Of a DNA stretch of 64,000 nt, positions 5,590 to 17,088 are shown piece by piece. Under the pieces are notes generated by a model. That model was not told where the DNA came from. It did not search any database and worked only from the letters and a program-made list of their open reading frames with translations. Origin of the DNA: Candidatus Heimdallarchaeota archaeon (GTDB lineage: Archaea; Asgardarchaeota; Wukongarchaeia; Wukongarchaeales; JBHIFL01); the NCBI GenBank assembly GCA_046761065.1, contig JBHIFL010000012.1, positions 1 to 64,000 of the forward strand, given 5' to 3'. Each line of letters opens with the position of its first letter. Position 1 is the first letter of the stretch. The translations under genes were made by a program, and so were the position numbers.

Positions 5590-5802
5590 GCTCAAAAGGA
5601 CAAGGATAATCCAATCCTAGTCCTGATTTTCTTTCCACTCATTTTCTCTTGTGAGTACTTGCACTATGAAGGTGCAATTTTTTCATTATTTGAATTTGGA
5701 TTGAGTTCTTAATTCATTTTATAAGTAGTATTTGTTTTATTATTTTATCTGGAATTATTCAGGATATCATCATTTACCTTCCCACCCCGGACATGGTTTC
5801 AT

Positions 5803-6480
5803 TCAGTGTTTCACCACCCGGAGCATAACCTGCCACTCCAGATTCTCCTTGTGGGGGTCAATTAGCACATACCGCCCCTTCGTGCCGTGCCGCGGGTCCC
5901 CCAGCGCGGAACTGGCCCCGCACACCTGGGCGTTTGGATCGCAGACTGGAATCCCGAAGTGGCCCGTGATCAGCCAGTCTTCCCACCGGAATCCACGCAG
6001 CAACGGATGGGGCTTCTTGACAAGTTGTCTTTTCAGAAGGACTAAAGCACGAGTATTTCGAATCCCCCCGTTCAATTCGATTGCCTTTTCCAACCCTAAC
6101 CCATTGCCATGAGCGAGATACACATCATTCGCACCACACCAAAGCCGCCCACTGTCTCGCACCGTGAACCCTGCCCTCCATAACCGCCGATCGATGCTGG
6201 CATCATGGTTCCCCCGGAGCAACACGGTCTTCTGCAGTAATCCCATTGCCTCTAACTCGTCTCGCACTTCAAAGAAGCACCGCCACGATTCTTCCTCTCC
6301 CTGTGAGGGGTACCGCAGCTCAATGGTGTCACCTAGCAGGAAGAGGGCCCCGAGCACCTCCCGGATCCGCCAGAGTTCCTCCACGTAGATCGGATAATGG
6401 GATCGGTCGTCTCCGATATGGAGATCAGCCATGGCCGCAATTTTCAACTCCTCCTCAAATCGTATCGGGTCACTGGTCAT
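5803..6480 (-). CDS. calcineurin-like metallophosphoesterase
   Basis: DLH, GD, GNHD, HG and GHFG motifs; ATG 6480 follows a GAGGAGG RBS just after the helicase stop. Confidence 0.85.
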   Translation of the reverse strand: MTSDPIRFEEELKIAAMADLHIGDDRSHYPIYVEELWRIREVLGALFLLGDTIELRYPSQGEEESWRCFFEVRDELEAMGLLQKTVLLRGNHDASIDRRLWRAGFTVRDSGRLWCGANDVYLAHGNGLGLEKAIELNGGIRNTRALVLLKRQLVKKPHPLLRGFRWEDWLITGHFGIPVCDPNAQVCGASSALGDPRHGTKGRYVLIDPHKENLEWQVMLRVVKH

Positions 6481-6484
6481 GTCT

Positions 6485-8773
6485 TCATCCTCCTCGTTGT
6501 CTAAAAAACGCTCGGAGCCGCTCATGGGCTCTTTTGGAATAACTGACGGGGAAGGTGTTCACGTCGACGCATCCTTCGCAATATCTCCGACAGGGACAGC
6601 CCCTCACCCGCTCCCGGACCACCGCTAAGATCTCTTCCGCATGGTCAAAAAGCTGCTTGGCACCCCCCATGGGCGCCCCACGATCTAACATCGCCAATTG
6701 CCACCTGTTCCCCTTGCCGCGTAGCAGCTCCACTTCCAGTCCGGACGGATCAAGACCCAACCGGTCTTGCGCCGCCTTCATGACCACCGCTCCCAGATGG
6801 GTGAACTCGTCTCTGCCAAACCACGCTCCCTTGAACCCCATGACAAGTCCTTCCGTCCAATATCGCAAGACGCCCTCCCCTGCCGGGATCCGCTGCTGCA
6901 CCACTACCCGACCACTCCCCAGTTCCCGGATCCGTCGCCAGGTCGGCTGCAAGGTGACCTCGACTTCGCCGAACCACGCGACCACCCGGTCCCCAACCCC
7001 TCGTGCGGTCCCACGCCCTGTCCTTACCTCTCTATCCACATAATTCTCACTGTACCATGCCTTCTCTGCAGGTTCCACTACAATCGTATCCTCTTGAATC
7101 TCTACCACCCGCCAAACCTCCCCTCTTAGGACCAAATAATCGCCTTTCCGCCCCTGCCGAGCCGCTTTCCACATATCGAGGTAACCTATCACCTGATTAG
7201 CCCGCGTGACCACCGCCAGCTCCACTTGAGCCGTACGAAACCGCTGAGCGAAGTACTCAGGGGCACTCCGATCTAGATGGATCTGGAACTGGTGCCGCCT
7301 TTTCCGGACCTTCCCCTCCACCAGCAGCTCCGTCAGAACCTCCTCCACCTTGGCTTCCAGATACTCCGCAGCGGTGTGCGGGAACACCCACCTCAGGTCT
7401 CGCTCGGTGAGCCCGAGGGCTCCACACAACAACAGGGCCATCTTCAAAATCTTCTCGCTGAAAAACTCATACCGAACTGGGTCGGGCTGGAGGGTCCGGA
7501 CCAGGGCTTGTAACTGGCGGGGATTGGCTAGGTAGTAGGTGTCTGGCTGCCGCCGCGGCGCTAAGAACCAGAAGACGTGCCCCTCCCGTTCGGGGTCCCG
7601 CGCCACTCGCATGACCACTTGGTGCACTCCCCGTTTCCCCCCACTTGGATACCCGATGATCACCACCAGATCCAGTTCCCCGAAGTTGACTCCCGCCTCC
7701 ACCGCCCGGGTCACCAACAGCCCCCGCAACTCTCCCCTCCGGAACTGTTTGACCGTTTCCCGGGTCTCCGCCCGTGTCAGCCCGCCATGCACGAGGCCAA
7801 AGTTCCGCCGCGTCAGCTCCTCTACGATCGCCACCCGCTCCAAGAGGAACTTGTTGTCCGCATAGATCACCACACGCGCCGTGGGGTAGATCTCCTCATC
7901 TAAGAGTTTGCGCAGAAACCGGTCAAATGTCGTCACCTCCCCTCCCTCCTTGGCCCTGAGTCCCGTCCCCTGACTGTAGACGAAGACTTGGATCCTTCCA
8001 TGCTTTGCTGGACCAGTAACTACCCGCGCCTCGACCAGTGCTTCCCGCGCGAGTTCCTCCGCGTTGGGGATCGTTGCACTGTTGAACACAAATCGTACCT
8101 CCCGCCCTCGCTCCCGGTTGTACCGCTTGAGGATCCGGTATACCGCCAAGAGATACGCTAGGCTGTATGCTGAGTAGTAGTCGAGCTCATCGCAGATCAC
8201 CATCCATGGCGAGACCATCGCCTCCCCCCAACCCGTCTCGCCTCGTAAAAGCGCCCAAAACAGCGTATCCTTGTACATGTCCACTGTCATGGGGATGATG
8301 TCCACGTTCCCCTTCGCCACCTGCTCCCGCACCCGCCGCCGCTCCTCCCGACTCATGTCACTGGTATACCGTGCTATCCCGATCTGACCCCCTGTCAATT
8401 CGATATTGTGCTCCCGTAATCGTTCCTCTTGATCGAACAACAGCGCATTATTCGGAAATAAGTAGATCACCGGCCGCCGCACCTCCCCCTCCTCCCCTTC
8501 TTCGCCCTGTTTTTGCCTTAGGACTCGTTCAAACGCCAAGAAAACGGTCGCCTCCGTTTTCCCAGCTCCGGTCCCCGCGACATGTAAGATATCATACCGC
8601 TTCACCTTTTCGACAAAGACTGCTTGATTCTCTAGCACCCTCCATCCATATTTCTCCAGAATCTTCGGCCCTAAGTATTGGAGCACTGCTCCCCACGCCA
8701 CCTCAGTCAACTCACCCACTGTTCGCTCATGAACTGCGTACGCCAGGGGCTTATCCAGCACCAGGCCTTTCAC
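6485..8773 (-). CDS. SF2 helicase with C-terminal DUF1998-like Cys4 domain (Hrq1/MrfA/SftH-like)
   Basis: Q motif, AGTGAGKT, DELD, SAT, TRAVEAGVN, degenerate motif VI QVVMRVAR and C-terminal CPCRRYCEGC. The GTG start overlaps the upstream TGA. Confidence 0.85.
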   Translation of the reverse strand: MKGLVLDKPLAYAVHERTVGELTEVAWGAVLQYLGPKILEKYGWRVLENQAVFVEKVKRYDILHVAGTGAGKTEATVFLAFERVLRQKQGEEGEEGEVRRPVIYLFPNNALLFDQEERLREHNIELTGGQIGIARYTSDMSREERRRVREQVAKGNVDIIPMTVDMYKDTLFWALLRGETGWGEAMVSPWMVICDELDYYSAYSLAYLLAVYRILKRYNRERGREVRFVFNSATIPNAEELAREALVEARVVTGPAKHGRIQVFVYSQGTGLRAKEGGEVTTFDRFLRKLLDEEIYPTARVVIYADNKFLLERVAIVEELTRRNFGLVHGGLTRAETRETVKQFRRGELRGLLVTRAVEAGVNFGELDLVVIIGYPSGGKRGVHQVVMRVARDPEREGHVFWFLAPRRQPDTYYLANPRQLQALVRTLQPDPVRYEFFSEKILKMALLLCGALGLTERDLRWVFPHTAAEYLEAKVEEVLTELLVEGKVRKRRHQFQIHLDRSAPEYFAQRFRTAQVELAVVTRANQVIGYLDMWKAARQGRKGDYLVLRGEVWRVVEIQEDTIVVEPAEKAWYSENYVDREVRTGRGTARGVGDRVVAWFGEVEVTLQPTWRRIRELGSGRVVVQQRIPAGEGVLRYWTEGLVMGFKGAWFGRDEFTHLGAVVMKAAQDRLGLDPSGLEVELLRGKGNRWQLAMLDRGAPMGGAKQLFDHAEEILAVVRERVRGCPCRRYCEGCVDVNTFPVSYSKRAHERLRAFFRQRGG

Positions 8774-11700
8774 TTACTCTCCCTCCTCAACATCGCCTCG
8801 ACGCCTCCTAACACACTTCCCAGCTCTCCTACTATCCCTTTCGGCACACCCGCCACCTCCTTCGCATACTCGACTAAGATTCGCCGCATCCGCTCTAAAA
8901 CCCCCGCCGCTTCGTGTGCTGATTCCTTCCTCAGGATTACAAAGGGGCTATACTGGTCCGGCTCCTGCTCCGCCATCGCCTCGATCAGTCCTTTAATGCT
9001 TTGCACGTGAGCCGCCTCCAACTCCCACAAACCCCGTCGCTTCTCCCCTTCCCAGACTACTTCCTGCTTCAAGAGATCCTCCACCAGTTGGTAGAGCTTC
9101 ACACTCCCCTGGGGGGTTGGAGCATACCTCGGGAACCCCCTTGTGGACTGATACCGCTCAAAGTCCTCTGGCAGCAACCACCCATCCAAGAACCCCACAC
9201 AAATCTCCTCCCAGAGGGTCGGCAATAGCGGCTCTCGCAAATCCAACGCCGCCGCCAACTCGGGGCGATCCTTGGGCCGGTGACTGAACAGCTCCACACT
9301 TTTATACCCTATCCCTACCTCTCCCCCATGGGCTCTTACCAGATTGGTCAGGACTTTCCCCGCCCGGTTCAACGCCGCGTCCAACATCGTCTTCGCCCCG
9401 GCCGCTCTTGTTGGGGTGGGGTAGATCCGATCCCCTCTTCGCCCAAACGTCCGCCCGATCCCTCCCACCACGATCCCTGTCCCTGGCCACCGCTCGCTCA
9501 ACGCCTCCCGAATCAGCCGATGCACCCCCTCACTCACCCGCCCCTCTAATGCCATGAACGCTAACCGATCAAACCGTCCCCGCTTGAGAAACCGGAGAAT
9601 TTTCACCACCTGCTCTTCGACTCGTTCGGTACGCTCCGCAGCTCTTCCGATTCGCCCGCATAAGACTGCGGTGGCCAACACCTGGTTAATTATCAGACCC
9701 CAGAAATACTTCCGCCGAAATTCTTCATACCACGGCTTCGCCTTTAACAGAGCTCGCCAAAACCCTACCGACGGCTGCTCATACTTCGGTGGCTTGATGT
9801 CCTTATAGGAATGGGGGATCCCTCGCGCCTCCAGCTCGTTTGCCAGTTCCTTCCTCCCATGCACTGTGACATACACATTCTCTATCTCATACGTAGCCGT
9901 GTGCTTCGGATACTTCACAAACAATTCGTTCCCCTCAATCCAGGCATCACATTCGTACGTAATCAACACAAACTCCCGCCCCGTTGTGGGCCACTCCGGC
10001 AGCTCCGGCTCATAGCCACAGTATATCTTGACCAGCCGCTTGATCTCCTCCTCAAAATCCACTTCCATCCGGGCAGTCCCATCGATCCTCCCCTTGAACT
10101 TCGCCCCGCATTCCTCGCACACCACCACGCGGCCCACCTCCGGTCGTTCTCGGAGTATCCCCTCGCAGACCTCCCGCAGACACCTCCACCCGTGCCTGAT
10201 GCCCTCCTCTCCCACCCACACGGCCTCCTGAAACGCCGTTAATGGAATCGTGGCCGCTTCCACCCGGGGGACGAACCACCCACACGCTTCCCGATTCTTC
10301 ACGTACCTCCCTTGCTCTGCTCGCCTTCTCATGAAGCGGTCCGTCGGGACTGCGCTCGGTCGCTCCTCTGCTATCTTATAAAAGGCTGCACAACCCCAGT
10401 CCTGGGCCGCGTAGAGCCCACACTCCCCACACCGCCTCCCCTCTCCCATTCCCCCTACCAGACACCCCGCCTCCGGCCACCCGCCGGGGTCAATCGCCAG
10501 CCCCAGTAACTCCACTTCCTCAACCTCGAGGACACACCCTTCTTCTCCCTCCAAACGGTAGTTACACCCCATACAACACTCGTCCTGACCCGCTCTCTCC
10601 TGTAACCCCCCGCTCTTCACTCGACACACAATCACCAACAGGGGCGCATATGGCCCGACTCGTACCTTCTGGCAGTGGATGGCCCGCAGCACCAGTAACG
10701 CTCCCCGTGGTAGCTCGCCAAATTGCTTGACCAGCGCTCGCACTCGCTTCGGGACAAAATATTTCATGAGGAGATAATGCACGCTCCGCTCAGGGATCCC
10801 CAGCTCCCTCGCTAAGTCCTGATACCACACCCGCCGCTGCGCTTCGACCTGCCCGGGATTCCCCCTCACGGGCGCGGTAATCCGCTTATTCAACCCTTTG
10901 ATAAGCTTATCCACCGCCTTCTGGAATTGAACCCGCCCAGGCAATAACACACCCCGTCTTTTTGGCGGCTCCGGCTCTTCTATTATCCCTCTTTTTGCTG
11001 ACGCTTCTCTACATGCCCGCGTCCCCTTTTTCGGCCGCCCCACCCCCTCCTTCAACACGGGCTTCCGCCTTGCCTTCTGCCCCGCTCGCACCATTTTGCC
11101 CGGGGACCCCACTTTTTTGGGCCGAACCCTGCCTTTTGCATCCCGCAACCGGGCTCCCGCCGCGCGTCCCCCGCTTCCAACAAACCTTCCCACCAGCTCC
11201 GCACGTTCCTTGTCTGTCAGCCGCTTCCCACCATGCTCTTCAAAGACCTGCAGACACGCTTTGGCGGAACTCGGCATCGCCGCTAACCGAGCCCCAAAGG
11301 GTGAACAGGAGAGCTTCCCCGCTTTATACACGCACCCCGTCTCCTTGGATCGGTACTTCTTTCGTCGAATACATCTCGCATCCCGGAGCTCCCGCAACGC
11401 CGCGTTCGCTCCTTTTACAAAATATTTCCAGGGCTCCGTATAGGGCGCCGCCCTGTACTCCCGGATCAATTCGGTGAGGATGGGATAGTTGCTCTCCACT
11501 TGTTCCTGGAGCTCTCGCTTCGTATTATATACCCGAGCCAGCTGCGGGATCAACTGTAGATAATACCCGGGAAACGTTTCCTTCAATCCACGCCGAAACT
11601 CCTTCTTCGTCCGTGCCCGCCGGTAGAACTCTAAGACATAATCGTGGAGCTCCTCAAAATACCACTTCGTGCATGTCGGCAGCCCTAACGCCCCTTGCTT

Positions 11701-12678
11701 CAACCAGTACTCCTTCTTCCGCCCACAGTTCACCAACAAGACGTGACCTCCTTCCCCCACCTCCTGCGCAATCCGTCCTAGCTCCAACGGGTCCCGAAAG
11801 TCTTTGCAGTCGACCACCACTACTTCTTCAACCTTTCCCACCGCCTCCCCAAACCTCCGCACCCGCCCCGCCTCATCCCTCCGAATCCATTTCGAATACA
11901 CGCAGAATCTCTTGCCCTCTCGCTCCAATCGCCTCCACACCCATGACAGCCTCATATCCATCCGCTTAATAGTTGCCATCCCCGTACCCCGCCGCCCTAC
12001 CATCTTGACCTCAAACCCCCGATCCTCCAACCACCACTGGAATAGTTCCGGATTCCCATGTCGGATCAAACATACCACTCGCGGACACCGCCGCCCAAGC
12101 TTGGCCAGCTCCATGATGCAATTGGCGTATAGCCGCCATTGTTGGCTCATTAGCCCTTCGAGAAACCCCACGAAAATCACCCGCTTCACTCCCAAGCCCC
12201 TTCTTCCTACCTTCACTAACCGGTTGTAAAACGCCTTTGCTCCAAATACTAACAGCTTCGTTCGTTCCTCCCCCTCTTTGTCTTTGTCCCCCGCCAGTTC
12301 TTCCTCCAAGACATCCTTCGGCCCCATCTCCTTAAGCTCAAATTCCGCTGGTTCTAGGTTCAGTTCAAGCACTTCTATAAGCCGCGCCTTGGCGTAGGCC
12401 GAACAGACGATCATATATGCCCTCCTTCTTCGCCGCCGCGTCCTTCCTCCTTCCCCTCGTGTTTTACCCCGCGGTCCCGGCCACCTTGCCCGCGCCCGCG
12501 CTCGTCGCTCCCTTATCTTGTCTTTTTCGGCATACATGGATAGGAGCCCTGTCAACGCCGCGTCTGACCTCTGCTGTTTTGGCGAACAGACCACCAAACA
12601 CCGGTGATCCTCCAACAGCTCCATCCCGAGCTCGTGCAGTTCCTGCCTTCCTAACCGCTCCAAACATTCAAGCAGCAT
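8770..12678 (-). CDS. cas1: giant Cas1 fusion protein: inactivated Ski2-like helicase / winged helix / HTH / Cys clusters / Cas1
   Basis: The C-terminal ~8900-9980 follows the Cas1 pattern: beta domain FVLITYECDAWIEGNELFVK...ARGIP, then MALEG, FGRR, LDAALN, FSH, LDLREP, EDF, YSPF. The N-terminus keeps a Hel308-like layout (GNPELFQWWL, ETF, CSPFG) without Walker motifs. Confidence 0.75.
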   Translation of the reverse strand: MLLECLERLGRQELHELGMELLEDHRCLVVCSPKQQRSDAALTGLLSMYAEKDKIRERRARARARWPGPRGKTRGEGGRTRRRRRRAYMIVCSAYAKARLIEVLELNLEPAEFELKEMGPKDVLEEELAGDKDKEGEERTKLLVFGAKAFYNRLVKVGRRGLGVKRVIFVGFLEGLMSQQWRLYANCIMELAKLGRRCPRVVCLIRHGNPELFQWWLEDRGFEVKMVGRRGTGMATIKRMDMRLSWVWRRLEREGKRFCVYSKWIRRDEAGRVRRFGEAVGKVEEVVVVDCKDFRDPLELGRIAQEVGEGGHVLLVNCGRKKEYWLKQGALGLPTCTKWYFEELHDYVLEFYRRARTKKEFRRGLKETFPGYYLQLIPQLARVYNTKRELQEQVESNYPILTELIREYRAAPYTEPWKYFVKGANAALRELRDARCIRRKKYRSKETGCVYKAGKLSCSPFGARLAAMPSSAKACLQVFEEHGGKRLTDKERAELVGRFVGSGGRAAGARLRDAKGRVRPKKVGSPGKMVRAGQKARRKPVLKEGVGRPKKGTRACREASAKRGIIEEPEPPKRRGVLLPGRVQFQKAVDKLIKGLNKRITAPVRGNPGQVEAQRRVWYQDLARELGIPERSVHYLLMKYFVPKRVRALVKQFGELPRGALLVLRAIHCQKVRVGPYAPLLVIVCRVKSGGLQERAGQDECCMGCNYRLEGEEGCVLEVEEVELLGLAIDPGGWPEAGCLVGGMGEGRRCGECGLYAAQDWGCAAFYKIAEERPSAVPTDRFMRRRAEQGRYVKNREACGWFVPRVEAATIPLTAFQEAVWVGEEGIRHGWRCLREVCEGILRERPEVGRVVVCEECGAKFKGRIDGTARMEVDFEEEIKRLVKIYCGYEPELPEWPTTGREFVLITYECDAWIEGNELFVKYPKHTATYEIENVYVTVHGRKELANELEARGIPHSYKDIKPPKYEQPSVGFWRALLKAKPWYEEFRRKYFWGLIINQVLATAVLCGRIGRAAERTERVEEQVVKILRFLKRGRFDRLAFMALEGRVSEGVHRLIREALSERWPGTGIVVGGIGRTFGRRGDRIYPTPTRAAGAKTMLDAALNRAGKVLTNLVRAHGGEVGIGYKSVELFSHRPKDRPELAAALDLREPLLPTLWEEICVGFLDGWLLPEDFERYQSTRGFPRYAPTPQGSVKLYQLVEDLLKQEVVWEGEKRRGLWELEAAHVQSIKGLIEAMAEQEPDQYSPFVILRKESAHEAAGVLERMRRILVEYAKEVAGVPKGIVGELGSVLGGVEAMLRRESK

Positions 12679-13003
12679 GTGATTACCTAATATATTTGGG
12701 AAATCGCTTTTTAAGGTTCAACAGTGTTTTAGAAAATCTTACCATATGTTTTTCACTGTAGAAATATTCCTTGTTAGTCTTTGAAAATACAAAATCCCCC
12801 ATGAGTATCCTCCTTCCATGGAAAAAAGTAAATTGTTGCTATCTACATTTGATATGGCCTGTATTATTCTGGCAATTCTCCAGACACCTACCCTGATTTG
12901 GTTCAATGGGGTTACAGAGTCAATGTTAACACTTTCACCCAGAATGGATCTCTTTTTACTCACCCTTGGGTGGTTTTTATATTACCAAGCCTACAACCCT
13001 CTG

Positions 13004-13444
13004 ATGACTCCCTCCTATCAAACTCCTCAAGAGGCCGCAGTTGCCCGACTCTTGGATTCTTTACCCCTCCGCTACCGCTACCGATGGGTTCTCCGTAATA
13101 GGCCGTACGCAAATTACGTGTTCGATTTCTTTATTCAGGGCGGCCTCATCCTCGAGTGCAGCGCCACTAAAAATGCCTCCTCAAAGGCAGTTAATTGGCT
13201 CTATCAGAAAGCCGGTCTTGTTAATCGCCGCTTCTGGGTGGTGAAACGCCGCTTTAACCCCCCTCCCATTACTGTTTTCCTTTTTGAAGCGCCCCGCGCC
13301 CACCCAAACCGTATTCACAACGCCATCCAAACCATGACCAATTTCGGCGAGCTGGCGTCAACAGACCGAATCTTTGTCCACTTCTCTGAATTAGAGACTT
13401 TCCTTACAAAATGGAGCTCACGGGAAGATATCAACCCCATTTGA
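13004..13444 (+). CDS. PD-(D/E)xK / DUF559-like nuclease, paralog 1
   Basis: TPQE...YVFDFFIQGGLILEC. ATG 13004 lies ~25 nt after a TTTTTATAT TATA-like box, so it is preferred over the ORF-track start at 12818. Confidence 0.6.
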   Translation: MTPSYQTPQEAAVARLLDSLPLRYRYRWVLRNRPYANYVFDFFIQGGLILECSATKNASSKAVNWLYQKAGLVNRRFWVVKRRFNPPPITVFLFEAPRAHPNRIHNAIQTMTNFGELASTDRIFVHFSELETFLTKWSSREDINPI

Positions 13445-13731
13445 AACTGTAGCATGAGATAAAGCTCGCTTGTAATCGCATCATCGTGTTTATCCCAAAT
13501 TTCTTCTCCTTTCTTCTTTTTTCCTTCAAATATACTTGATCCCTTCTCTTGTAGCTTTGTTGGCGTTTCCTTCTTCTAGTCCTTCACTTGGATAATAAGC
13601 CCAAAATGCCCTTCTAGATCAAAATAGAACTTGCTAGAAGGCTTCAAAGACTTATATATATCTATGGAACTAGTATGATGTGATACCATAGGAATCCATT
13701 GGAATCCTCCTTGAAAACAAAGGTGTGGTGC

Positions 13732-14376
13732 ATGCAAACTAAGAAATTATCCAATGACGACTCGGTAAAAGCGGAAAAGGGGATCTTACGTCACACAATT
13801 CTACACCAACCCTCCACCGCTCAAGAATGGACGATTGTCCAACTCTTGCAGGAGCTAGACCTGAAATTCATGCATCCTTGGTTTGTTTATATCCAAAATC
13901 GCCGCTATCTCTTCGATTTTCTCATCGTGCCAGATGTGGCTGATTTCTCGTCCACTGACATCACGGTGCGAGTCCGTGAATCTGACTTGGAAACGACCGG
14001 GCCTGGATGTGATCAGAAGCGGTTGACAAGATTCCGGGATGACCTCCACTCAGATACTACACCTTATAAGGTGGAAAATGCTTATGTTATCGAGTGCGGC
14101 GTTTCGCAAAGTTGTCCCTCCAAGGCACGGGCCTGGCTCCGTTCTAAGGCTGCCCTCATTGACCTACGATTTCGCGCTCTCAAACTCTTCTTTCACTCAT
14201 CTCCTTTCACCTTGATGCTGCTCGAAGGCCCATATTTCTCTCAAAACGACTTTAATTCGAACCTAGAACCTCTATACTTTACTGATAAGCTGGTAACTTC
14301 CATAGATCAGCTGCAAGATTTCCTAAGAGGATTGAAGGCACGGTTGAGAGGATCTTCTCAGACGGGAGGTGTCTGA
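13732..14376 (+). CDS. PD-(D/E)xK / DUF559-like nuclease, paralog 2, with ~49-aa in-frame insertion
   Basis: TAQE...YLFDFLI...YVIEC...SKARAWLRSKA aligns with paralog 1 (SKAVNWLYQKA). ATG 13732 follows AGGTG. Confidence 0.6.
   Translation: MQTKKLSNDDSVKAEKGILRHTILHQPSTAQEWTIVQLLQELDLKFMHPWFVYIQNRRYLFDFLIVPDVADFSSTDITVRVRESDLETTGPGCDQKRLTRFRDDLHSDTTPYKVENAYVIECGVSQSCPSKARAWLRSKAALIDLRFRALKLFFHSSPFTLMLLEGPYFSQNDFNSNLEPLYFTDKLVTSIDQLQDFLRGLKARLRGSSQTGGV
13941..14084 (+). repeat. structured ~140-nt repeat, copy A (inside nuclease gene)
   Basis: Core 13990-14028 matches 16147-16185 at 37/39 positions; the flanking hairpins are conserved in position. Confidence 0.85.
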
Positions 14377-14378
14377 AT

Positions 14379-15227
14379 TTGGGGAAGGAAGATGTTCAAT
14401 GCATAAAAAAAATAAAAAAAGTAGTTTCCGTGGTTGCTTGGACACCCATTGCTAAGCCTTTGAACGGAACGCTCCCACGCTCGAAGAACTCCACAATGCT
14501 ACGACTGGCTCCAGTGGAGTACACCTACAAGCATGGAAAAGAAGTCAAGTCCGGTCGGGTGGAGACCTATCTTATCAAAGGGCTGCGCGGCGCTCTGCGG
14601 CACTCAGCTATGAGCCTCTTACGGGAGGCTGGCCTGGAAGTATGCCATTCTAGTGATAAAGAGGCAACCCAAGAAGGTAAAGCCCTGATCCCCGAGGGGT
14701 TTCACCCATTGGGTGCATGCGAGAAGGACCCCTGCATCCTGAATCGTATTTTTGGATGGATGCGCCATCAATCCCGGATTGCTGTGTATGCTGATCCCAT
14801 CGGGTGTCCGAAACACAAGACCTTTGCTGCAGATGTCCCCCTCCAACCCGTCCAAATCGCCACCGAGAACCGGGTCGCTCTGACCTTTGACCACGAAGCA
14901 ATTCAGGATTTTGGTGAACGTTATTTCTCCGGAGAATTCCGGTTTCACATCGATGTCTCCGCTTTGGAGCCGGAGGAACTTGGGCTAGTCATTCAATCTG
15001 CTATGACCCTCCACCGCCTTGGTCGGGGCTTTAATGCTGGCTATGGCCATATTAAGATCCAACAACTTACCCTTGAACAAGTGACAACTGAGCGCCGACT
15101 CCAGTGGGATGGAAATGGAAGCTTTCGTGTCGAAGAAACGGAAAGTCGTGAACCACTCCACCAAGAAGTCTTAGACGCGTTGCAAGCTTTTCAACTGTAC
15201 CTTAACGCACAAACTGGGGAGTCTTAA
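14379..15227 (+). CDS. cas7: Cas7-family RAMP (Csm3/Csf2-like)
   Basis: KGLRGALRH, Cys-rich C...CEKDPCILNRIFG, thumb TENRVAL, ELGLVI and G-rich loop LGRGFNAGYGHIKI. TTG start after GGAGGTG. Confidence 0.85.
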   Translation: MGKEDVQCIKKIKKVVSVVAWTPIAKPLNGTLPRSKNSTMLRLAPVEYTYKHGKEVKSGRVETYLIKGLRGALRHSAMSLLREAGLEVCHSSDKEATQEGKALIPEGFHPLGACEKDPCILNRIFGWMRHQSRIAVYADPIGCPKHKTFAADVPLQPVQIATENRVALTFDHEAIQDFGERYFSGEFRFHIDVSALEPEELGLVIQSAMTLHRLGRGFNAGYGHIKIQQLTLEQVTTERRLQWDGNGSFRVEETESREPLHQEVLDALQAFQLYLNAQTGES

Positions 15228-16136
15228 ATGTATTGTGTGTTAATTGGACATACATCAACTCCTATTGTCAAACCCAAGGCGGAATTTTGTTGGAAGGGGA
15301 CCCTTGTCCGAATTAGTCACACCCTCATCTCCACCCCTGACCATCTCTCCACCATTTACACTCGACCTCCCTTGCGCCGCTATTATGGGAAACTCACCGT
15401 GGGGAAACCTTCCTTCCTGTACGTCTATAGGTGTTACTATGGATATGTCTACGTGATCTTTCCTGTCCGAACACCAAGAGCAGGCGCTCGGAAACTGAAA
15501 TACCTCCTCCAGCATGATCAAATGGGGCGTTTTGCTCAGGAAGGCATGGGCCGCGTCCGATGGCTCGGCGGCTTCTTTACTGCTACACTCCCCCCCAAAC
15601 CACCTCGACCCCCCAAACTTCGAATCAGAAAAGGCATGCCCCCAGATCTGCCTGAGTCCATCAAAAAACTCCTCACACTCGCGATTCTCCATGATCTCGT
15701 TCATTGTAACCGGCACCAAAGCAAACTGATGTCTGAAGTCCAGATCCAAGATGAAGAGCTCCGTCGGCTTGCCAAATCTCATCACGCCCTCACAATGAAT
15801 CCACTTTTACTTACCTTGCAAAAATATGATCGAATAGCGGCTAGAATTACCCGTAAGCATTGGTCTCCCATTAAAACCCGTTACTCGTGGCGGGCGAATA
15901 AAAAAGTCGATGTTCAGCATTTAGTACGACAAATTGAGGCGCATCAAGACAATATCTTAACTCTGTATAAAATCATAAAGGCTTCCAAGGAGTTGGATCT
16001 GCTGAATGAGAGTTTAGAGTATGGCCACAGTTCCCTCCGCCAACATCTTCTCATTATCGCTAATTTAATCGTGACAGATTGGTTGAAGGAGCGTTTAACT
16101 CTTTCATCAGCTGGAATTACGGTTGAAACGCCGTGA
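15228..16136 (+). CDS. Cas5-like RAMP fused to circularly permuted HD nuclease
   Basis: G-rich loop MGRFAQEGMGRVRW, a Pro-rich linker, then LHD...HH...YD and a C-terminal SLRQHLL. ATG directly follows the cas7 stop. Confidence 0.7.
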   Translation: MYCVLIGHTSTPIVKPKAEFCWKGTLVRISHTLISTPDHLSTIYTRPPLRRYYGKLTVGKPSFLYVYRCYYGYVYVIFPVRTPRAGARKLKYLLQHDQMGRFAQEGMGRVRWLGGFFTATLPPKPPRPPKLRIRKGMPPDLPESIKKLLTLAILHDLVHCNRHQSKLMSEVQIQDEELRRLAKSHHALTMNPLLLTLQKYDRIAARITRKHWSPIKTRYSWRANKKVDVQHLVRQIEAHQDNILTLYKIIKASKELDLLNESLEYGHSSLRQHLLIIANLIVTDWLKERLTLSSAGITVETP

Positions 16137-16240
16137 ATTCGACGGAGAAACGACCGGCCCTGGATGTGATCAGAAGTGGTTGACAGGGTTTCAGGAAGGA
16201 CATCCCCGCGAATACAGCCGTGTAAGCGGTTGAAAACTTA
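16098..16240 (+). repeat. structured ~140-nt repeat, copy B (3' end of cas5-HD and intergenic)
   Basis: Direct repeat of 13941-14084 at an offset of 2157 bp; three hairpins, two with GNRA-like loop sequences. Confidence 0.85.
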
Positions 16241-16639
16241 TTAAGAGTAATATAGGTCATGCATTCCCGAAACATGGCCAAACCATGTCTTTTTTTCCAG
16301 TTCTTCAGCGAGGACTGTCTCCCATCGGTCTTTATAGGTGTGTTTTAAGTGCGCAAGCCGCGAAATCTCATCGAGGATGATTTCGAGGAGGTTGGGCAGT
16401 AACATGTACTCCTCTTCGTCTAGCTCCTCACTCTTGAGGAACTCATCGATGGCGAGCCCAACGAGCACCTGCGGGTCGGAGTAGTCGGTCTGGCGAAGGA
16501 TTTCGTAGCTATAGAAGGCGATTTGGGACATGAGATGCCCATAAGGGTATAACTCTTCAAAAAACCCGACATAATTCCCAATAAGGTCTTCAATCCATTT
16601 ATTGCGGGGGTATCCCTTCGGAGGCATTTTGTCTTTCAA
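16241..16639 (-). CDS. acidic helical hypothetical protein
   Basis: 132-aa ORF with protein-like composition, convergent with cas5-HD; no motif recognised. Confidence 0.6.
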   Translation of the reverse strand: MKDKMPPKGYPRNKWIEDLIGNYVGFFEELYPYGHLMSQIAFYSYEILRQTDYSDPQVLVGLAIDEFLKSEELDEEEYMLLPNLLEIILDEISRLAHLKHTYKDRWETVLAEELEKKTWFGHVSGMHDLYYS

Positions 16640-17088
16640 TCCAGTTACCCCGGTCCGGTCTTAACTTGGGAATATAACCGAGGGAGTGTTCCTAATTGTT
16701 CAATACTTAATAACCAACAGATTCCCCTGTCGCTAGTAGCGCAGTATTCCTTTCTTAAATATGTTTTTGTTCATTACATCAGACTCCACGAAGATCTAAT
16801 TCCAGATAAGTTGATGAGAGTCTAGAGGGACCCTCCTCCAAGGAACGCCCGACGAAGAGGAGGTTTAAAGGTGTAATCCCAGAAAGTAAGGTGTCATCCA
16901 GCTCTCCTATAATGGATAGGAATGGGTTAGATTTAGATCAATCCATCTATATCAATATAGCAGCGATTGAAAAGTCCAGTGCCGTTTTCCAAGAGTTTAA
17001 GGATTGCAACTAAATGACATGGGAATGCAAGAGAAACCCGAGATTGTGGAGACAGGATGCAACTTAGTAAGACGTTAGAGGTACAGGA

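Follow-up and report, generated by a model that had tools for sequence, protein, structure and literature searches.

What does a Cas1 protein do when it is 1302 residues long and begins with the remains of a helicase? The question is raised by a gene on the minus strand of the window analysed here, a 64,000-nucleotide stretch (positions 1 to 64,000 of contig JBHIFL010000012.1, assembly GCA_046761065.1) from Candidatus Heimdallarchaeota archaeon. The protein is very probably a giant aCas1 with a predicted intact catalytic site and a decayed Hel308 helicase, encoded in an ARAMP-type cassette. For its role we favour, with a probability of roughly 0.55, a casposase-like, Cas2-independent integrase that acts on the ends of its own genomic island and on RNA-gene units. 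Its winged helix-turn-helix (wHTH) and Cys domains would bind DNA, the dead helicase would act as a clamp or docking surface, and an MrfA-like helicase would be the motor. The gene and its parts, all on the minus strand, are as follows.

8770..12678, minus strand: giant aCas1-type gene, 1302 aa (open frame, profiles, fold models); order from N to C terminus: dead Hel308 shell, linker, winged helix, two Cys clusters, Cas1.
11209..12678, minus strand: residues 1-490, decayed Ski2/Hel308 helicase with RecA1, a reduced RecA2 and a winged helix (fold, dead-only profile).
10939..11208, minus strand: residues 491-580, basic linker, 27 K/R against 8 D/E, with little conservation across the family.
10612..10938, minus strand: residues 581-689, basic wHTH with a ratio of nonsynonymous to synonymous substitution (dN/dS) of about 0.15 (AlphaFold2 (AF2) model, VIA).
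10444..10608, minus strand: residues 691-745, lineage-specific insert with CMGC, low model confidence.
10282..10431, minus strand: conserved Cys cluster 1 (C750, C753, C763, C799), which may hold Zn or Fe-S.
10108..10182, minus strand: conserved Cys cluster 2 (C833, C838, C854, C857), zinc-ribbon-like (weak zinc-ribbon matches).
8929..9978, minus strand: residues 901-1250, complete Cas1 domain, beta-sandwich and helical catalytic domain (profile, AF2 model, Foldseek, VIA).

An earlier note on this DNA had described a 1302-aa Cas1-helicase fusion with an HTH and Cys clusters, and the open reading frame (ORF), which has zero internal stops, the profiles and the fold models all bear this out. An identical copy of the ORF is present in another assembly, and the aCas1 of a sister genome (locus L074), 88% identical at the amino acid level, is also intact, with no stops or indels. 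Single-sequence searches with the protein in Pfam, NCBIfam, PADLOC and Atlas features gave nothing usable, and as no Pfam or NCBIfam family was matched, identification as Cas1 required profiles and fold. All domains are under purifying selection, with dN/dS of 0.10-0.15 for the wHTH, Cys region and Cas1, where Cas1 itself has 0.13-0.15, and 0.22-0.37 for the dead helicase. In the sister locus the intact frame (L074:6096-10004) is annotated as fragments, with the last 398 aa only; similar genes may therefore be hidden in annotations.

Compared with the PDB, the family profile matched the casposase 6opm (E=6e-7) and, over the entire domain, the A. fulgidus Cas1 4n06 (E=9e-7). The E, H and D-x-x-E motifs of both structures align on aCas1 residues E1045, H1133, D1146 and E1149, whose codons start at 9546, 9282, 9243 and 9234, respectively. 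The first three are invariant across 32 aligned Cas1 domains and position 1149 is E or D, confirming the Cas1 metal-binding pattern that had been proposed at these positions. The corresponding motif residues of A. fulgidus Cas1 we take to be E168, H239 and E254. Because position 1149 aligns with E254, the alignment makes E1149 the likelier third metal ligand.

The AF2 model of residues 575-1302 (pLDDT 81, rising to 91-98 near the four acidic and His residues) contains both Cas1 subdomains, the N-terminal beta-sandwich and the C-terminal helical domain. When this part was submitted to Foldseek on its own, as the earlier note had advised for each domain, it behaved as Cas1 (E 5e-9), with all top 50 rows belonging to the Cas1 family. 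With VIA, model residues 327-676 (901-1250 of the protein) match residues 0-345 of 4n06 at Z 20.9, and the casposase is matched at Z 20.6, with a root-mean-square deviation of 2.7 A across 253 residues. Given the sequence alignment and the fit to the casposase, the catalytic residues probably cluster, and aCas1 would be expected to have integrase activity.

On models and profiles, residues 1-490 are a Ski2/Hel308-derived fold (RecA-RecA-winged helix). The AF2 model of this region (pLDDT 71) has Hel308 as its top Foldseek match (1.5e-5), and VIA places Brr2, Slh1, Hjm and Hel308 at Z 19.5-18.8 (Hel308 at 18.8), with Pol theta also among the best matches. Like Hel308/Hjm, the region has a RecA1-RecA2-winged-helix layout; unlike them, it is fused to Cas1, has a shortened and poorly modelled RecA2 and has lost its ATPase motifs. 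The Walker A, DExH and motif III positions that mark an active Ski2/Hel308 enzyme are all substituted in the window protein, in agreement with the earlier view of a Ski2-like N-terminus without Walker A or DExH. Three distant homologs from one other family (L052-L054) retain Walker A and DExH; in the other rows these two motifs and motif III are substituted.

The N-terminal profile reaches 3e-15 against PDB helicases, but this value depends on the three intact members, and without them the host Hel308 is matched at E=2.7. Since the intact rows drive the sequence matches and were also in the folding alignment, the dead members were tested alone with hhalign. Their profile matched the intact N-termini of L052-L054 (P=87.7, E=3e-6) and, weakly, host Ski2-like helicases (P=22.6, E=9e-4); it did not match the MrfA control (E=0.52).

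The purifying selection on the dead helicase fits a structural role. Most of the shell is missing in about one quarter of the full-length homologs (those of about 980-1000 aa, plus an 850-aa paralog on contig C17), so the shell is dispensable in the family. Members with an intact helicase group together in the Cas1 tree, as a clade next to the C17-type group, and a separate clade of 26 rows has a dead or missing helicase. The tree is midpoint-rooted, so motif parsimony is the argument for the direction of helicase decay, which is not demonstrated.

The HTH proved to be a winged helix, with modest VIA Z scores of 5.5-6.7 for residues 581-689 against many wHTH domains. The CxxC groups listed in the earlier note stand in part: two four-Cys clusters are conserved, whereas CMGC (702-705) sits in an insert present in the closest relatives only. 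Profile, structure and feature searches found no fold relative of Cys cluster 1, which was not folded alone. Given the selection on these accessory domains and their basic charge, a DNA-binding or docking role is plausible.

The giant aCas1 architecture is recurrent in Asgard genomes, not unique to the window. Searching with the C-terminal part yielded 18 relatives, and about 35 homologs, mostly of 980-1470 aa, were collected in all. Among the homologs are sequences labelled Promethearchaeota and Heimdallarchaeota. Cas7 and a putative Cas5-HD lie beside homologs in 13 of the tabulated loci. ARAMP systems are array-less type III derivatives in Asgard archaea that combine Cas7 and Cas5 with nucleases and, in most cases, a distinct Cas1 (PMC8730458, PMC12669027), and ARAMP with aCas1 was described in 2020 (Makarova et al., CRISPR J 3:156, as summarised in the same two papers). 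The window locus resembles them: its host is a Heimdall-group Asgard archaeon, its Cas7 is diverged, a Cas5 and additional nucleases are putatively encoded, its Cas1 is distinct and no array was found. In line with such a host, a 90%-cluster mate of the island helicase, from the syntenic sister genome, carries the label Ca. Heimdallarchaeota. The gene belongs to an ARAMP-type cassette of Cas7, putative Cas5-HD, putative nucleases and an RNA unit, and its product fits the already catalogued ARAMP/aCas1 kind. The two ARAMP summaries do not mention the Hel308 fusion, the helicase decay series or the RNA units. The Asgard mobile-element literature searched does not mention Cas1, and no experimental test of ARAMP or aCas1, called enigmatic since 2020, was found in the literature accessible to search.

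The remaining features of the island and its edge are listed below.

5803..6525, minus strand: calcineurin-like metallophosphoesterase (library match).
6485..8773, minus strand: MrfA/Hrq1-like DEAD-type helicase with a C-terminal Zn-binding domain and intact motifs.
12818..13444, plus strand: putative PD-(D/E)xK/Vsr-like nuclease 1, small (motif only).
13699..14376, plus strand: putative nuclease 2, a paralog of nuclease 1, interrupted in frame by an RNA unit.
13927..14085, plus strand: RNA-like unit of about 160 nt, a net gain of 49 codons, in frame inside nuclease 2 (comparison with the sister genome).
14379..15227, plus strand: diverged Cas7 (RAMP, Csm3-like; Pfam RAMPs 1e-4, Csm3 1.6e-7).
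15228..16136, plus strand: putative fusion of a Cas5-like RAMP with an HD domain (Gly loop and HD motif both conserved).
16070..16241, plus strand: RNA-like unit across the cas5-HD stop (position conserved among related loci).
16212..16766, strand not assigned: 555-bp segment (132-aa ORF) in the opposite orientation to that of the sister genome, an inversion with one breakpoint in the RNA tail.

The MrfA-like helicase gene lies downstream of aCas1 and overlaps its stop by 4 nt, and in most loci aCas1 and nuclease 1 are arranged head-to-head. Both small nuclease genes have an invariant D...E motif and weak library matches, and the putative Cas5-HD has no significant match in the PDB or PADLOC libraries. 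The island has a G+C content (GC) of about 58%, against 42% for the host. In three related loci (L039:1008-3437, L041:1-2568 and L044:16146-19127, one family) the helicase and phosphoesterase profiles match one long ORF, a fusion near or facing aCas1, and at L047:11382-14696 the small nuclease domain lies within a 1104-aa ORF. Adjoining the island is a host gene for an intact Ski2-like DUF5814 helicase (window:17089-19668), syntenic in the sister genome. Far from it, at window:63019-63689, are degenerate repeats with a period of about 132 nt, probably of a repeat protein.

The same genome encodes three aCas1 paralogs in total (window, C36 and C17) and several RAMP remnants. Contig C36 carries a second full island (L007:7841-18451) with a 1473-aa aCas1, helicase, phosphoesterase, nuclease-Cas7 fusion and Cas5-HD, and with a copy of another RNA-unit subfamily on either side. 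The third paralog, on C17 (L066:6514-14958), is about 850 aa, lacks most of the helicase shell and groups with the L055-L057 clade. Genes for a split MrfA-like helicase and a phosphoesterase come after it, and before it lie an HTH gene and another of 540 aa that L055 and L057 also have. Contigs C4, C5, C15, C21, C25, C30 and C87 hold Cas7, Cas5-HD, phosphoesterase and RNA-unit remnants, with no aCas1 match.

Could such a Cas1 still serve CRISPR adaptation? It shares the entire two-domain fold and the catalytic residues with adaptation Cas1 (4n06) and with Cas4-Cas1 and RT-Cas1 fusions, but identity is about 15%, aCas1 is three to four times longer and neither Cas2 nor an array was found here. 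Cas2 (PF09827) had no match in the 91%-complete genome, in a search whose control was detected in 6/14; canonical Cas1 likewise had no match in that genome. No CRISPR array was found in the window, nor in the genome by a simple 20-mer spacing scan. The earlier note had proposed that the helicase shell and Zn/HTH domains stand in for Cas2, which in its strict form makes aCas1 a spacer-acquiring integrase with these domains as ruler or scaffold. The missing Cas2 and the basic charge and selection of the accessory domains would suit this proposal, but no array was found for it to extend, and the shell is mostly absent from the shorter homologs noted above. Neither casposases nor type V-C Cas1 require Cas2 for integration, and Cas2-free integrases exist that lack such domains (PMC8464041), so that nothing needs replacing. 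The stand-in for Cas2 is thus unsupported, and we consider it very unlikely.

The casposases are closer models for the integrase that we favour. They too are Cas2-independent Cas1 enzymes (family 2, M. mazei 6opm; family 1, PMC8464041), and a casposase is the best profile match and near-best structural match to aCas1. Family 2 casposases also carry their own HTH (PMC8464041). Unlike casposons, the window island has no PolB among its ORFs and no terminal inverted repeat or target site duplication; in aCas1 the HTH is N-terminal to Cas1, and helicase and Cys domains are added. Another relative is found in the TnpB-linked loci Cas1H-Asgard-1/-2, for which aCas1 was proposed as the likely transposase (PMC10691335). 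These encode a homologous giant Cas1, and the sister clade of the tree (C17 paralog, L055-L057) has helicase and phosphoesterase partners too. In the window island, unlike in those loci, the partner is the Cas7/Cas5-HD module, TnpB was not recognised and flanking repeats were not found.

The helicase-phosphoesterase pair, which recurs in a subset of loci, raises another possibility, that the Cas1 site is a branched-DNA endonuclease working in repair or recombination with these two partners, unrelated to mobility. Repair by MrfAB and the cleavage of branched DNA by E. coli Cas1 offer analogies. Such a nuclease would fit the Hel308 ancestry and the tight operon that aCas1 forms in many loci with the MrfA-like helicase and the phosphoesterase. 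Less in keeping with a repair gene, the distribution is patchy (profile matches in 20 of the 301 genomes of the phylum searched), there are several copies per genome, the island is of atypical GC, and some loci keep the RAMP module without the helicase. By analogy a repair role may be imagined, but we regard it as improbable.

The RNA-like units bear on what aCas1 might act upon. Compensatory changes were found in one subfamily, and support for an RNA structure comes from this covariation in five related loci only; single-strand folding z-scores are not significant. In the genome, 44 matches to the C36-type unit and three to four to the window type were found; 10 of 37 copies lie ahead of start codons, a raw count with no null model. 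In their variable parts the units resemble hairpins. A guide function for the RNA tails was considered and rejected, their matches being no better than those of shuffles.

Comparison with related loci revealed several rearrangements. The aCas1 arm of the window island (5799-14338) is 83% identical in DNA to the islands in L001, L067 and L069, whose flanks differ and which carry a different Cas7/Cas5/RNA subfamily. Although the L001 and L067 contigs are 92-94% identical, the island sits at a different place in each, within one and the same neighbourhood, and each time its RNA end is joined a few codons into a host gene, providing the ATG. In the sister genome (L074), the island is at the window site; cas5-HD is followed by two tandem units of about 160 nt, and nuclease 2 is uninterrupted. 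In the window a single unit follows cas5-HD, and the orthologue of the second L074 unit (alignment score 126 vs 79) lies inside nuclease 2, at 13927-14085, where its insertion replaces 12 nt. Such rearrangements suggest that aCas1 moves its own island and small RNA genes, not CRISPR spacers, and aCas1 would be their maker, as far as sequence comparison allows.

Other differences were seen among these contigs. The Cas7/Cas5-HD/RNA module (window:14379-16241 vs L001:4439-6543) appears swapped, with DNA homology ending at the end of nuclease 2. An element that encodes an IscB-like RRXRR+HNH protein of 507 aa (L001:7022-8945) is inserted between the two small nuclease genes, and L067 has the empty site. 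Two mangrove contigs, about 94% identical, match from window position 5696 inward and not before; a related strain thus has another flank on the phosphoesterase side.

The island may instead be a defence system, in which invaders are attacked by Cas7/Cas5-HD/RNA together with the nucleases and helicase. The part of aCas1 would then be limited to adding, duplicating or diversifying RNA units, and the island would spread by ordinary horizontal transfer. The HD motif is conserved in the Cas5 fusion, Cas7 is Csm3-like, the sister genome has tandem RNA units and the island site is stable, all of which would fit, and HRAMP and ARAMP have been interpreted as nuclease-bearing, defence-like derivatives (PMC8730458, PMC12669027). 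However, the hairpin-like variable parts of the units match the genome no better than chance, no foreign target came to light, none having been tested, and the island is at two sites in the close contigs L001 and L067. Taking both sides together, we find a purely defensive role rather doubtful.

The integrase reading has its own difficulties. At the L001 and L067 junctions host DNA was replaced (83 bp and about 800 bp) and not duplicated, unlike in Cas1 or casposase integration. The relocated RNA unit has 5-6-bp microhomology at both ends, and host illegitimate recombination could therefore also explain its relocation. At the window island, neither terminal inverted repeats nor target duplications were found above chance level, and since a sister genome that is 12% diverged has its island at this site too, the window copy has not moved recently. 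The RNA tails, compared with the genome, flanks and promoter, have no match above shuffled controls. No empty site or circle joint was found among the related contigs examined. A 10-bp inverted repeat at 5790/16280 was rejected, being at chance level and without duplication.

If aCas1 is nevertheless the integrase that we favour, a Cas1 oligomer would, by analogy, join DNA ends to a target by transesterification without Cas2. Its substrates would be island ends and RNA-gene units of about 160 bp rather than CRISPR prespacers. The wHTH and Cys domains might hold the ends or the target, the dead helicase might be an ATP-independent nucleic-acid clamp or docking surface, and the neighbouring MrfA-like helicase may supply the motor. 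More speculatively, the target could be chosen by the Cas7/Cas5-HD/RNA complex. In the most far-reaching version, which we think unlikely, the ARAMP island is an RNA-associated mobile element and a Cas1-based counterpart of CRISPR-associated transposons. There aCas1 would excise and re-integrate the island and single RNA genes of about 160 bp, without target duplication, into or beside coding sequence, with the frame kept or a ribosome site and ATG supplied, and the Cas7/Cas5-HD/RNA complex would dock on the dead Hel308 shell for site choice.

The family offers material for telling these roles apart. The homologs form a natural series in which the helicase is ATPase-intact, dead or missing, and the locus supplies natural junctions, with two island positions in L001 and L067 and the filled (window) and empty (sister) sites of an RNA unit. 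If it is true that aCas1 moves RNA genes or is targeted by RAMP-RNA, it would represent a new route between casposons and CRISPR adaptation, and would be a candidate integration tool.

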